Sequence record: OP172791
Reading direction: 5' to 3' (one strand)
Length of the DNA stretch: 64,000 nucleotides
From: Escherichia phage ECO340P1
A model generated the notes under the pieces. The model did no database searches. It was not told the origin of the DNA and worked only from the letters and a program-made list of their open reading frames with translations. Below are positions 45,559 to 52,018 of the stretch, in pieces; position 1 is the stretch's first letter, and every line of letters begins with the position of its first letter. Position numbers and translations under genes: made by a program.

Positions 45559-45587
45559 TTGACAACTTTGCGGAAGGGACTTATACT
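45559..45587 (+). promoter_or_regulatory. strong sigma70-type promoter for 45621 / MTase / DNA polymerase
   Basis: TTGACA 45559-45564, N17, TATACT 45582-45587; same hexamers as promoter at 9315. Confidence 0.6.
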
Positions 45588-46061: not shown

Positions 46062-46856
46062 TTGAGCAAGTTGAACACACTTGATCAATATTACACTAAC
46101 CCCGCTTATGCGGGGTTCTTATGTGATAAGATCAAAGAAATTTTTGGAGAGGAAGCTAACTACGTAGAACCATCTGCGGGAGAAGGAGCTTTCTCTTCTT
46201 GTTTTAAAAACATAACTTCTTTTGATATTGACCCTAAGTTTGAAGATTGTATTGAGGCAGATTTTTTAGCTCAATCTGTTGAGTCTGTTGGTAGTGTAAC
46301 TGCTTTTGTCGGTAATCCTCCATTTGGAAAAAATGCTAGTCTTGCCATTAAATTCTTTAACCATTGTGCTGAAATGCTGGATAACGAAGGTGGTATTTGT
46401 TTTATCTTGCCTCGCACATTTCAAAAAATCTTTTTTGCACACAAGCTAAATCCCCATATGCATCTTCTTTACGAAGAAGAATGTCCAAAAGGATCTTTTA
46501 TTCTTCATGGAGAACCTTGGGATGTTCCTTGTGTATTCCAGGTATGGATTAAACGCAACGAGAAGCGTTCTCCCGTTGTTTTAGGAGAGAATCGACTATT
46601 CGTATTAGGTAACAGTAAAGACTACGATATAGCCGTTAGGAGAGCGGGAGCAAGTGCAGGTAAAGTGTTATCAGAAGAAGATTCTTTATCTGAAGCATCT
46701 ACCTATTTTTTAAAAGCCTTGACTTCTGATCTTAAAACGCGTATCATTGAGGCTTACCCGTTACTTAAAGCTGAAGCTAGTAAAACTGCGGGAGTAAGAA
46801 GTTTAAGTTTAAAAGAACTTCAGTGGGTTCTGGAGAACATTAGAAAGGAGGAATAG
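46062..46856 (+). CDS. DNA N6-adenine or N4-cytosine methyltransferase (gamma-class-like)
   Basis: TTG start after SD AAGGAGG; motif order QYYTNP, EPSAGEGAF, VGNPPFG. Confidence 0.75.
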   Translation: MSKLNTLDQYYTNPAYAGFLCDKIKEIFGEEANYVEPSAGEGAFSSCFKNITSFDIDPKFEDCIEADFLAQSVESVGSVTAFVGNPPFGKNASLAIKFFNHCAEMLDNEGGICFILPRTFQKIFFAHKLNPHMHLLYEEECPKGSFILHGEPWDVPCVFQVWIKRNEKRSPVVLGENRLFVLGNSKDYDIAVRRAGASAGKVLSEEDSLSEASTYFLKALTSDLKTRIIEAYPLLKAEASKTAGVRSLSLKELQWVLENIRKEE

Positions 46857-49453
46857 TGAGTAAGTTTACATGGGATATTGAAGCAAACGGATTGTTGAAT
46901 AATGACACTATTGATTATTTAGCTAGTCCTTATCGTCTCAAAGACACATTTCAAATGCACTGTATTGTCTTAGAGAACCATGAAACAGGAGAAATAGTAG
47001 CTTTCCACGATGGCCCTAAATACATCTTTGATGGGCGTCCTTACGAAGAGTCAGATGGTAAATACACATATGTTCTTAAAGAGTATGTGGCGCAAGATTA
47101 CACACATTTTCAACTAAAAGATTTCCCAGATTTTATTAATCATGAAGGTTATTTTAAAGACAAGCCTGAATATCTAGTTGAAATGGCTGTGGCTCACAAC
47201 GGTATCAACTACGACTGGTTGGCTACAAAACTGTTTTATGGATTAGATTACAGTGTTAAATATAATACGTGGGGCAAAAATAAGGTAAAACTTATTGACT
47301 CCTTGATTTTGAGTAAAGTGTTAAACCCAGATCGAAAGATTGAGGGCAAATCAGGACATAGCTTGGCAGCACTTTCTCGAAAAGCAGGTGGTGATGTAAA
47401 AATAGATTTCCGTAAAGAGATTCCAGAAGAAGATCGATTTAAGACTTTTGCTGCGGATATGCTTTATTACTGTATCTATGACAACAAAGCCAATACGAGC
47501 GTATATAATTACCTTATGGAAGAATGGGGTGATTATGATAAATGGGAAGGTCCATTTGAACTTGAACAACGTGTAGCAGACATTATTACACGCCAGGAAC
47601 ACCGTGGGTTTGCTTTTAACATGAAACAAGCAGAAGAGAACCTTGCTTTTTTGGATGCAGAAATGGAGCGTCTTCGTTTACTCGTTGAGCCTATTTTGCC
47701 ACCTAAACCAGCAACAAAAGGTTATCTTAAGGCTTTTATTCCACCTAAGTTGCAAATTAAAAAGAACTTAGAGCCAACTAACCATATGATCAATTTTGCT
47801 AAGAAACATGATGGTCATTTGGAAGAGAGGGATGGCGATTGGTGGTTAGTTATGTTGGGGAAAGAGTGGAAACTGCCAGTTGCAGCAGATGAGCCTCTAT
47901 GTGATCCTAACATTCCTGCAACATTGAACGATACAACCCATATTAAAAACTGGCTTGTAGGATTAGGTTGGGTACCGTCTGAATATAAAGATAAAGACTT
48001 GACGCTTAAATCTGGCACCAAAATTAAAAAGAGCGAGGAAGAACTTCAGAAAGGTATTAGAGCTTACGTTGAGCAAACTCTATCTTCTAATTTTTGTCAG
48101 GATCGTTGTGATCATCTGGAGTGCACACCGGAAACTTTGGAAAGGAAGATTCAAGAGCGTATAGCAAAAGGTAAAGGTCGCGGTCTTAAAGTATTGACTA
48201 ACCCATGTTTTACCAAAGGTCAGGAAAAAGAAATTTGTCCTAACCTGCAAGCTTTGGGTGAGAAATTTCCTTATGCTACACAGATTGTAGAATACTTAAC
48301 GTATAAGCATCGTAGGAACTCTATTTTAGGTGGCGGTGCTGATTGGGAAGAAGATGAAGAAGATCAAGAATACGATAAAGGTTTCTTAGCCGCAGTAAGG
48401 GCGGATGGGCGTATTCCTACACCAGCCGCTACATGTGATGCTGCAACCTCTCGTATGAAACATAGATCTGTAGCTAATATTCCTCGTGTCACATCTTTGT
48501 TTGGATGGGAGATGCGTAACTTGTTTGGTGTAGAGGTTCCTAAATACTTCCAGATCGGCTACGACTTCGACTCTTTGGAAGCAAAAATTGAATCACATTA
48601 CTGTTGGCGGTACGAGCCGGAGCCACACGAGTATTGTAACGCTCTGTTGTTAGAGAAACCTAATGATGTTCACACAATGATGGCAAAACGTATCACTGAA
48701 ACTATTGGACGTAAATTTGAACGTAGTCCTGCTAAATCTGTTAAGTATGGTATTACCTATGGTGCACAAGCCGACAAGGTTGCTAAAACAATTGGTAGCG
48801 ACAAGTTTACAGGTCAATTGGTGTTCGATGCTTTCTGGGAAGCTGCATTCCCATTGGCGCGTCTTAAAGAACGTTTAAACGATTTCTGGGTTAAGACTGG
48901 TAAACAATATGTTTTGGGTATTGACGGTCGTAAGGTTCCTACTCGTTCTGCTCACGCGATTCTTAACTCTCTGTTCCAAAGCGGTGGGGTTATCTGTGCT
49001 AAACGTGCAATGGTTATTTATGATGACATGATCGAAGAAGAAGGGCTAAGTGTTGACTTCTTTAAAGATGACTGGAAGAATAAAGACTTCGTGCAACAAA
49101 TGATTGCATATCACGATGAAGCCCAGCTTGAAGTTTCTCGTAACCTTGTAGAATTCAAATGGTTTTCACCTGAATCATTAGGTTGGAAGAAAGTAGACGA
49201 TCCTGAAGAACAAAAGAAAATTGATAAAGAATGCCTTGCTAAAGTCGAAGAATGGAAGCATAATAAGGAAAAAGAGACAGGGCAAATTTGGGCTAACATT
49301 CATGAATCTCCCAAAGGTGGATGGTTTACAGCCTATAGTCGGGCAGGTGAACTTGCTGCTTTAGCTGTTACTAAAGCTGGAGAATTTTACAATCTTAATG
49401 TTCAGCTTACTGCTGGATATGACGTGGGGAATTCCTGGGCCAGTTGTCACTAA
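46856..49453 (+). CDS. family A DNA polymerase with 3-prime to 5-prime exonuclease
   Basis: GTG start after SD AAAGGAGGAA; Exo I WDIEANGL; motif A GYDFDSLEAKI; motif B RSPAKSVKYGITYGA; motif C YHDEAQ. Confidence 0.9.
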   Translation: MSKFTWDIEANGLLNNDTIDYLASPYRLKDTFQMHCIVLENHETGEIVAFHDGPKYIFDGRPYEESDGKYTYVLKEYVAQDYTHFQLKDFPDFINHEGYFKDKPEYLVEMAVAHNGINYDWLATKLFYGLDYSVKYNTWGKNKVKLIDSLILSKVLNPDRKIEGKSGHSLAALSRKAGGDVKIDFRKEIPEEDRFKTFAADMLYYCIYDNKANTSVYNYLMEEWGDYDKWEGPFELEQRVADIITRQEHRGFAFNMKQAEENLAFLDAEMERLRLLVEPILPPKPATKGYLKAFIPPKLQIKKNLEPTNHMINFAKKHDGHLEERDGDWWLVMLGKEWKLPVAADEPLCDPNIPATLNDTTHIKNWLVGLGWVPSEYKDKDLTLKSGTKIKKSEEELQKGIRAYVEQTLSSNFCQDRCDHLECTPETLERKIQERIAKGKGRGLKVLTNPCFTKGQEKEICPNLQALGEKFPYATQIVEYLTYKHRRNSILGGGADWEEDEEDQEYDKGFLAAVRADGRIPTPAATCDAATSRMKHRSVANIPRVTSLFGWEMRNLFGVEVPKYFQIGYDFDSLEAKIESHYCWRYEPEPHEYCNALLLEKPNDVHTMMAKRITETIGRKFERSPAKSVKYGITYGAQADKVAKTIGSDKFTGQLVFDAFWEAAFPLARLKERLNDFWVKTGKQYVLGIDGRKVPTRSAHAILNSLFQSGGVICAKRAMVIYDDMIEEEGLSVDFFKDDWKNKDFVQQMIAYHDEAQLEVSRNLVEFKWFSPESLGWKKVDDPEEQKKIDKECLAKVEEWKHNKEKETGQIWANIHESPKGGWFTAYSRAGELAALAVTKAGEFYNLNVQLTAGYDVGNSWASCH

Positions 49454-49871: not shown

Positions 49872-50090
49872 ATGCGTAAATTAGTGAGCTTTAATGTTTC
49901 AATTCTTGTTGATGAACAAAATGAAGATGTTATTAAAGGTCTTGCAAATAAGATTGCAGGTGGAATGACGGAAGCTGAAGTGTGGGAAGAATGTGCTCGA
50001 CTTTATGAGGAAGGTGTTATTGAGGTCTTGGGGGATGAGATTAATATGGACGATGTTGTAAAAGTAACTGTGGAGCGTATCAATGACTAA
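49872..50090 (+). CDS. hypothetical protein (72 aa)
   Basis: ORF with SD AAGGAGAAAA. Confidence 0.5.
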   Translation: MRKLVSFNVSILVDEQNEDVIKGLANKIAGGMTEAEVWEECARLYEEGVIEVLGDEINMDDVVKVTVERIND

Positions 50091-50676
50091 ATCAAAACAA
50101 ATCAATATTGCCAAAGAAATTCTTACCGTATTAAAGATCGCTGATCCTAATTCTGTCTTGGCTGGCGGTGCTGTTCGTGATTGGCGTATTCTTGATATTG
50201 CTGGACGTGATCTGGATTTCTATACATCCCTTCCTGCACATCGGACTGAAGAACAAATACAAGGATTAATTGCATCTGCTTTAATGGGAACCAATATTCG
50301 TAAACTAGGAAACAAAGAGGCTTCTGACAATTATGAAGGTGTTACTGGTCTTAAACACGTTTTTGAGTTTGAACGTGATGGTCAGCTTTGCAACCTTATG
50401 ATTATGGAACCAAGCGTAATGACAACCTTTCTAAATGAGTTCGATCTGTCCATCTGCCAGGCTGCATTTGATGGGAAGGATTGTTATTATTCTAAAGATT
50501 TTGAAACAACCTTGGAAACAGGGATCTGCTTCTTGCACAAAGACGTTAGAGAAGATGCCAAACACGTTATTAAAATTGCTACACGTTTCCCATATCTTCG
50601 TTTTGTGAAAGAGGTTAAGGTTCCACGTCCACCTCAAGTAGATACCAGATTGGAAGAAGATGATATTCCTTGGTAA
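50083..50676 (+). CDS. minimal nucleotidyltransferase (Pol beta superfamily, CCA-adding/poly(A) polymerase head-like)
   Basis: Motif LAGGAVRDW..LDIAGRDLDF matches CCA-type head domain GGAVRD...D.D. Confidence 0.6.
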   Translation: MTKSKQINIAKEILTVLKIADPNSVLAGGAVRDWRILDIAGRDLDFYTSLPAHRTEEQIQGLIASALMGTNIRKLGNKEASDNYEGVTGLKHVFEFERDGQLCNLMIMEPSVMTTFLNEFDLSICQAAFDGKDCYYSKDFETTLETGICFLHKDVREDAKHVIKIATRFPYLRFVKEVKVPRPPQVDTRLEEDDIPW

Positions 50677-50721: not shown

Positions 50722-51114
50722 ATGACTGAACGTTCTAAGATAGCTGTTGAAACTGTTTATGGAAACTATACCAGTTTGACACTAGTTGAGAAAAATGTTG
50801 TAGGTCTTGACAACTCTTTTTATTTTCAAATTTTGGTTATTCAAGGTGGAAACAAGAAGCTAACTGCTCGTGTTGAAACATCTGAAATAATTGAAACCAC
50901 TGTTACAAACAAAGAATTCATTTCACTGCAAGATACAATCCGAAACGTTATAGACGAAGAAGGCAAAGCTGCCACAATTAAACTCGGAGGTTTCCCAGTG
51001 CAAATAGTTCATTTTCCTAATGGTGAAATTGGAGTTGGAATAGGTAAAGGTAAATACCTGTTAGAGCAAGATGATATGGAAAGACTCCGTTCTTTCTGTG
51101 CAAAATTAATGTAA
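50722..51114 (+). CDS. hypothetical protein (130 aa)
   Basis: ORF after promoter TTGACA-N18-TAGGAT; weak SD. Confidence 0.5.
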   Translation: MTERSKIAVETVYGNYTSLTLVEKNVVGLDNSFYFQILVIQGGNKKLTARVETSEIIETTVTNKEFISLQDTIRNVIDEEGKAATIKLGGFPVQIVHFPNGEIGVGIGKGKYLLEQDDMERLRSFCAKLM

Positions 51115-51130
51115 TGTAGAGGAGATAATA

Positions 51131-52018
51131 ATGTCCGTAATTAATACTGAAACTGATCGTAAAGGCAAAACCGTAACTTATGCAACTGGTATCGTAGACT
51201 ACGTTAAACTGGATAAATTCGCTGAACCTAAAACTTTTCATTGGGAAGGAAAAACGATTGTTTCAACTCACCGAGCTTCTCTTGTTCTGAAAGAGAAAGG
51301 TGCTAAACCAGATGAGAAAGGTGTTTGGATTTCTCTTGGTGACATTGAACTGAAAGAAGGTTATGAAAACCTGCAAGTCAAAGAAGGTGATAATTGGATC
51401 ACTATTGAAAAAGGTGTAGAAGTAAGTATTGATATTGATCGCGTTGATAATAAAGGCGGTAAAACTTACTACAATACTAAAAAATCTCGTATTACAGTAT
51501 TGTCTACCGATGGTGTTCAGAAGTCTAACAAATCTTCTGGCAATAAAGGTTCCAACGATGCTGCTCCTAAGCAATCCTATAAAAAACGTGATACTGTAGG
51601 TCTGGAAACTGGTCACGCAGTAAATGGTGCACTGGAACTGATTCGTAATGGTGTTAAAGGCGATGCTTTCGATATCGCTGGGGTTGTTCAATCTGCAACT
51701 GTCACGCTGAAATCGGAAATTGCTGAATCTCGTGGCGTTGATATTAATGATTATGATCTTGGGGCATCTGTTGGTCACGCTATTCTTAATGCTTGTAAAG
51801 ACCATACCATTAAGACTGTATCTGTAGAAGATCTGATTGACTCTGCTCGTAAAGTTCTAGCTCTGTCTGATAAAGTTGCTGCTGCCATTCGTGGTTCCGC
51901 AGAACAACCTAAGAAAGAAGAGAAGAAAGAAGTTAAAAAGCCTGAACCACAACCAGAACCAACTCCAAGCAATCAAGAAGAACCTCCAATGGACTTCGAT
52001 GATGATATTCCATTCTGA
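51131..52018 (+). CDS. single-stranded DNA-binding-like protein with SSB-type acidic C-terminal tail
   Basis: C-terminus PPMDFDDDIPF matches E. coli SSB tail; Lys/Pro/Glu-rich linker before it. Confidence 0.6.
   Translation: MSVINTETDRKGKTVTYATGIVDYVKLDKFAEPKTFHWEGKTIVSTHRASLVLKEKGAKPDEKGVWISLGDIELKEGYENLQVKEGDNWITIEKGVEVSIDIDRVDNKGGKTYYNTKKSRITVLSTDGVQKSNKSSGNKGSNDAAPKQSYKKRDTVGLETGHAVNGALELIRNGVKGDAFDIAGVVQSATVTLKSEIAESRGVDINDYDLGASVGHAILNACKDHTIKTVSVEDLIDSARKVLALSDKVAAAIRGSAEQPKKEEKKEVKKPEPQPEPTPSNQEEPPMDFDDDIPF

Follow-up and report, generated by a model that had tools for sequence, protein, structure and literature searches.

A short Gad2-like nucleotidyltransferase gene beside the replication genes of a phAPEC8-like Escherichia phage

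What role a nucleotidyltransferase of merely 197 amino acids could play among the replication genes of a phage is the question raised by a gene of Escherichia phage ECO340P1. The gene lies in a stretch of 64,000 nucleotides from sequence record OP172791, here called the window, whose source is a phAPEC8-like Phapecoctavirus; phAPEC8 (98.5% identical) serves as stand-in for the genome outside the window. In GenBank, the gene is labelled 'putative tRNA nucleotidyl transferase / poly(A) polymerase', and 64 phage records hold an identical or 96-100% identical protein. A sequence-only reading had likewise proposed a minimal CCA-adding/poly(A)-polymerase-type enzyme that might repair tRNA 3' ends or tail RNAs. 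Text searches of the literature returned no experimental description of this short nucleotidyltransferase family. The start codon of the gene shares an 8-nt overlap with the stop of the preceding ORF (49872-50090), which suggests translational coupling.

The GGAVRD...D.D signature noticed in that reading is indeed present (G28-G29-A30-V31-R32-D33, nine residues, D43-L44-D45; Table 1), and the pattern GG[AST][VPIA]R[DN]-x(6-12)-DxD matches once when the window is translated in all six frames, and not at all in 200 residue shuffles. The catalytic carboxylates align as well: D43 and D45 are, like G28 and G29, invariant in 128 diverse relatives, and conservation reaches 90% or more for A27, A30, R32, D33 and W34. 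A candidate for the third carboxylate is E95 in the subsequent β-hairpin, at a position that is not invariantly acidic (E or D in 90 of the 128 relatives, i.e. 70%, and N or Q in 25), and position 104 of the same hairpin is occupied by Q or N in 123 of the 128. Segment 120-130 resembles the D-F-T-x-N-A portion of motif B from class II CCA-adding enzymes, minus its two arginines, with F120, S123 and C125 being 77-84% conserved across the relatives. The likely equivalent of motif D (EDxxR), matched by inspection only, reads E157-D158-A-K-H161; positions 157 and 158 are unconserved in the family and position 161 is H or Y, with the nearby K164 reaching 97% conservation.

Table 1. Features of the nucleotidyltransferase gene and its surroundings (positions in the window).
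Feature	Position	Strand	Remark
Sigma-70-like promoter (TTGACA, 17 nt, TATACT)	45559..45587	+	Consensus match only; coincides with annotated phAPEC8 promoter
Family A (T7-like) DNA polymerase	46856..49453	+	Four genes 5', same direction; Pfam DNA_pol_A E 1.4e-13
GGAG ribosome-binding site	50072..50075	+	7 nt 5' of ATG; sequence reading
197-aa ORF and stop codon	50083..50676	+	Short Gad2-like, class II-like nucleotidyltransferase; phAPEC8 gp083; ATG 50083, TAA 50674-50676
Motif A: G28-G-A-V-R-D33, nine residues, D43-L-D45	50164..50217	+	Phosphate-binding loop and two metal-binding aspartates
β-Hairpin, residues 90-108, with E95 and N104	50350..50406	+	Model strands 90-98 and 101-108
F120-D-L-S-I-C-Q-A-A-F-D130	50440..50472	+	hhalign alignment to Gad2 (F-D-F-T-V-C-M-G-A-F-D)
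E157-D158, then helix 160-168 with H161, K164, R168, F169, P170	50551..50592	+	Likely counterpart of the motif D helix
C-terminal linker (low confidence, ~178-190) and tip E191-E-D-D-I-P-W197	50614..50673	+	Resembles SSB C-terminal tip
130-aa protein (phrog_16560)	50722..51114	+	Always directly 3' of the nucleotidyltransferase in Stephanstirmvirinae
295-aa protein, 'SSB' in some records	51131..52018	+	SSB PHROG matches within residues 247-295 only

How far this likeness to tRNA enzymes extends beyond motif A was assessed with structure and profile comparisons. The AlphaFold model used here (128-sequence input, pLDDT 92.7) superseded an earlier one from 10 sequences (pLDDT 63.6) that had yielded generic Pol-beta matches only. 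Its best predicted-structure matches are tRNA nucleotidyltransferases and bacterial poly(A) polymerase I (PF01743; e.g. 1MIV, 3H37, 4WBY and 3AQL), and the predicted fold is that of a class II-like head domain. The protein has a Pol-beta-type nucleotidyltransferase signature. Pfam PolyA_pol (PF01743), however, reached only 13.9 bits (E 0.07), short of its threshold of 23 bits, and this match is confined to residues 26-65; among the relatives, 18 of 128 match PF01743 at E ≤ 0.01, the best at 3.9e-5. Profile-profile comparison with class II enzymes aligned 22 columns in local mode, covering motif A only, and gave 11% probability in global mode. Because the alignment fails outside motif A, the mapping of motifs B and D rests on inspecting the order of secondary-structure elements. 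In class II enzymes, motifs B (RRD) and D (EDxxR) set nucleotide choice, motif D being the amino-acid template for C and A. The RRD of motif B, which serves ribose recognition, has no counterpart in the window protein, where the equivalent position is by inspection E119-F120-D121, and just 25% of the relatives have an aspartate at position 121. Other family scans gave E 0.04 with NCBIfam, no match with PADLOC and nothing relevant in a PDB sequence search. The CCA-adding/poly(A)-polymerase-type assignment stands for motif A and a predicted head-like fold, but not for motif B RRD or for an alignment of the whole domain, and since the database label goes back to a 40-residue motif, it should not be read as function. 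That the usual long body domain is missing was correctly noted before; body and tail domains are both absent, the protein stopping at residue 197.

This brevity is a trait of the family and not the result of truncation. The family comprises 1053 clusters (50% identity) found among 1.84 billion representatives, and the best 150 of these 1053 relatives are nearly all 175-230 aa long and cover query residues 1 to ~177. For longer members that carry N-terminal extensions (P0077, P0093 and others), Pfam offered no further hint. Carriers include 192 phage records and 80 viral-contig loci, many of them phage contigs of ~45 kb. When 185,579 species genomes were scanned with the signature motif, only 5 loci emerged, all on contigs of metagenome-assembled genomes, and the family appears to be confined to viruses.

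Among the relatives that have been studied by experiment, the closest is the anti-Gabija protein Gad2 and not a tRNA enzyme. Comparison of the family with 8 Gad2 homologues (Suppl. Table 10 of 10.1101/2023.05.01.538930) by hhalign resulted in a probability of 97.4% and an E-value of 1.2e-11 over 114 columns, aligning query residues 23-154 with Gad2 residues 26-142. In a search of 8 sequences, the A2 profile matched the verified Gad2 of B. laterosporus with 26.7 bits (E 1.8e-9). About half of the best 120 profile matches carry a precomputed Pfam label PF26128 'Gad2'. For instance, P0176, a relative with a strong Gad2 match, aligns with the window protein in BLASTP over residues 2-170 with 28% identity (E 3e-22); the precomputed PF26128 match is weak for P0252, faint for a protein 60% identical to the window protein (P0009) and absent from a 98% identical one (P0001). 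These alignments show homology between the family and the nucleotidyltransferase domain of Gad2. Gad2 is itself a predicted nucleotidyltransferase that is needed by SPbetaL7 to resist Gabija, a homologue of it being sufficient for resistance; as late as 2026, the mechanism of Gad2 was given as unknown. In phage Emajogi, a nucleotidyltransferase annotated as Gad2 adjoins the primase/helicase and is toxic on overexpression.

A replication setting is also found for the present gene, which is associated with replication genes in many lineages. In the window, the promoter-like sequence heads a gene block whose last gene is the nucleotidyltransferase. The phages phi92 and FKP3 keep the order of polymerase, nucleotidyltransferase, ~130-aa ORF and SSB-like protein at a nucleotidyltransferase identity of ~36%, and the gene occupies a fixed position in two phage genera. 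When neighbouring genes were called by a simple longest-ORF procedure in 47 lineages, which are not phylogenetically independent, a replication gene was found at most five genes away in 30 of them; a family A DNA polymerase lies within this distance in 23 of the 47 and a T7 gp4-like primase-helicase in 20. The 130-aa protein takes position +1 in five lineages and is a possible partner of the nucleotidyltransferase.

At the C-terminus, the conserved tip resembles that of SSB in its sequence. In the model, confidence drops over residues 181-197, with pLDDT values of 76 and then 55. Proteins of 59-98% identity retain the tip as DDIPW, or in one sequence as DSFPW, whereas the linker varies in length and sequence. 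The pattern D[IVL]P[FWY] occurs in only two ORFs of the window, both times at the extreme C-terminus. Such tips are enriched among the nucleotidyltransferase lineages, yet present in 6 of 47 only. Two genes 3', the 295-aa protein ends in 12 residues, EPPMDFDDDIPF (nt 51980-52015), that match the end of E. coli SSB exactly. In Aeromonas phage 2-L372D, the Gad2 homologue terminates in ENMDYDPF.

Taken together, it is highly likely that the protein is both homologous to Gad2 and catalytically competent, that is, a real and probably active nucleotide-transferring enzyme. Beyond this, the gene is tentatively read as the stand-alone catalytic core of a phage-specific nucleotidyltransferase from the Gad2 superfamily that works near the replisome, perhaps in counter-defence; this last element, taken for itself, is a suggestion to which somewhat less than an even chance is given. 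The G-G loop, R32-D33 and K164 would bind an NTP or dNTP, and D43 and D45, perhaps together with E95, would drive nucleotidyl transfer to a 3'-OH or another acceptor. Produced together with the phage DNA polymerase, the enzyme could dock via its flexible DDIPW tail onto a protein that recognises SSB-type tips, which may be a host SSB-interacting protein or a component of the phage replisome. By analogy with Gad2, it might then enzymatically shield replicating or linear phage DNA against Gabija-type nuclease-helicase immunity. In a more specific version, which is a long shot, the tail acts as a mimic of the SSB tip that docks at the SSB-binding pockets of host genome-maintenance proteins or of the phage replisome, and the enzyme extends the 3' ends of DNA or primers, or else modifies its docking partner with nucleotides, so that replicating or linear phage DNA is hidden from end-sensing immunity such as Gabija. 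The idea of the sequence-only reading that the gene counters a host defence may be right in spirit.

A role on tRNA, as envisaged in the sequence-only reading, would have a minimal CCA- or A-adding enzyme rebuild or extend tRNA acceptor ends that host nucleases have damaged. The top structural matches of the model are tRNA nucleotidyltransferases and its motif A is of the class II type, G-G-x-V-R-D followed by D-x-D. Moreover, this type of phage genome possesses 11 tRNA genes, and in the Vequintavirinae long-form Gad2 homologues are the first gene 3' of arrays of 21 and 17 tRNA genes, oriented in the same direction. The nucleases Old and GajA belong to the same family. Cleavage of tRNA by P2 Old, reported in a paper that is cited in PMC12904381, also counts in favour of such a role. 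On the other hand, the protein lacks a body or tail domain that could hold a tRNA, no RRD was found in it, the E-D of EDxxR is unconserved in the family, and PolyA_pol remains under the Pfam cut-off. A need for CCA addition, which would arise from phage tRNA genes without CCA, was considered and rejected, since all examined phage tRNA genes encode CCA (11 of 11 in phAPEC8, and 17 of 17 and 21 of 21 in the Vequintavirinae arrays); the host, too, possesses its own CCA-adding enzyme. The tRNA cluster of phAPEC8 is ~42 kb away from the nucleotidyltransferase gene, and a tRNA gene is found within 6 kb at only 6 of 46 related loci. Phages of ~45 kb, the contig size of many carriers, uncommonly have tRNA genes. 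With tRNAs that already encode CCA, a replication neighbourhood and Gad2 as closest studied relative, there is little support for tRNA 3' ends as the substrate, and tRNA repair or tailing is considered unlikely. A poly(A)-polymerase-like tailing by which host or phage RNAs would be targeted for degradation appears very improbable: the protein has neither the RNA-binding body of PAP I nor its C-terminal region, motif A alone aligns and the gene context is DNA replication.

Another alternative is a replication accessory without any link to defence, namely a minimal enzyme of the Pol X/terminal-transferase kind that would extend RNA primers or the 3' ends of DNA without a template at the phage replication fork, for example, for end processing, help in priming or the handling of gaps. 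The fixed position of the gene indeed looks more like that of a core replication accessory than of a typical mobile anti-defence gene. Against this, inhibition of Gabija is the sole phenotype established by experiment for the superfamily, no helix-hairpin-helix or other DNA-binding element turned up in the window protein, and we know of no class II-like or Gad2-like enzyme that acts on DNA; overall, this alternative is regarded as rather unlikely. Finally, the acceptor may not be a nucleic acid at all. The enzyme could nucleotidylylate a protein, for instance, an SSB-interacting host enzyme caught by the tail, or it could generate a small nucleotide product that disturbs sensing by the host. 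The top structural matches, however, are all polynucleotide 3'-end transferases, and PADLOC returned no match to CD-NTases or other defence-related models, which renders this possibility improbable. The preferred reading remains that of a Gad2-type catalytic core near the replisome.

If this assignment to the Gad2 superfamily is correct, the gene could be of use beyond the phage in which it was noticed. Gabija is reported in >15% of sequenced prokaryotic genomes (10.1101/2023.05.01.538945), and Gad2 is among the few known inhibitors of this system. The 197-aa protein amounts in essence to Gad2 reduced to its enzyme core, is present in easily grown E. coli phages, and could therefore become a simple model to find out what Gad2-type enzymes transfer, and onto what. 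Moreover, its family of 1053 clusters far exceeds the 170 Gad2 homologues first reported. The linkage to replication genes and the SSB-like tail provide concrete hypotheses. Should docking via the SSB-like tip turn out to be true, no class II-like nucleotidyltransferase would have been shown to work at DNA replication forks before this one; it would also be, to our knowledge, the first enzyme shown to use an SSB tip as an address label, and would supply a mechanism for Gad2.

Several known systems invite comparison. With class II enzymes, the protein shares the type of motif A and the helix preceding it, at a spacing of 9 residues here versus ~8 in class II. Yet those enzymes comprise ~400-470 aa with body and tail, whereas the window protein is phage-encoded, adjoins replication genes and manages with 197 aa. 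A stand-alone head-domain protein is known as NP_344798.1 (PDB 2LA3; PF06042/DUF925), but it has no match to the window protein at the sequence level, and the description of PF06042 is that of a family from bacteria, not from phages. MenT and AbiEii toxins rank well below class II enzymes as structural matches and gave no PADLOC match, and no antitoxin partner was recognised among the genes adjoining the nucleotidyltransferase. Membership in the phage anti-CBASS nucleotidyltransferases mentioned in PMC11724313 was likewise considered and rejected, as these are reported mostly in bacterial chromosomes, PADLOC gave no match to CD-NTases and the structural similarity to CD-NTases is low.

Gad2 (PF26128), known from Bacillus phage SPbetaL7 and a Brevibacillus laterosporus prophage, is like the window protein encoded by phages or prophages. 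Common to both are A-G-G, D-x-D-[IF]-[YF]-F, V-Q-[LI]-[IM], F-D-[FL]-[TS]-[IV]-C and D-F, with G-G-A-I-T-S in Gad2 in place of G-G-A-V-R-D. The verified Gad2 proteins have 394-400 aa, and their C-terminal half of ~220 aa is missing from the window protein, in which only the linker and the DDIPW tip follow residue 177. As identity within the common domain amounts to just ~17% in the hhalign alignment and the C-terminal half is absent, its function may differ from that of Gad2. The genomic setting differs as well, given that the window protein, with its acidic DDIPW tail, is located in a replication module and Gad2 in the SPbeta anti-Gabija locus.

The likeness to SSB consists in D-D-I-P-aromatic at a free C-terminus, following a flexible linker of varying length. 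Between the E. coli SSB tip DDDIPF and the DDIPW of the nucleotidyltransferase, four of the five final residues are equal, with W replacing F. Acidic, Phe-terminated tails are also known from T7 gp2.5 and gp4 and are cited here as an analogy to the DDIPW tip. In SSB, the tip is borne by a DNA-binding protein, whereas in the present case it is attached to a predicted enzyme.

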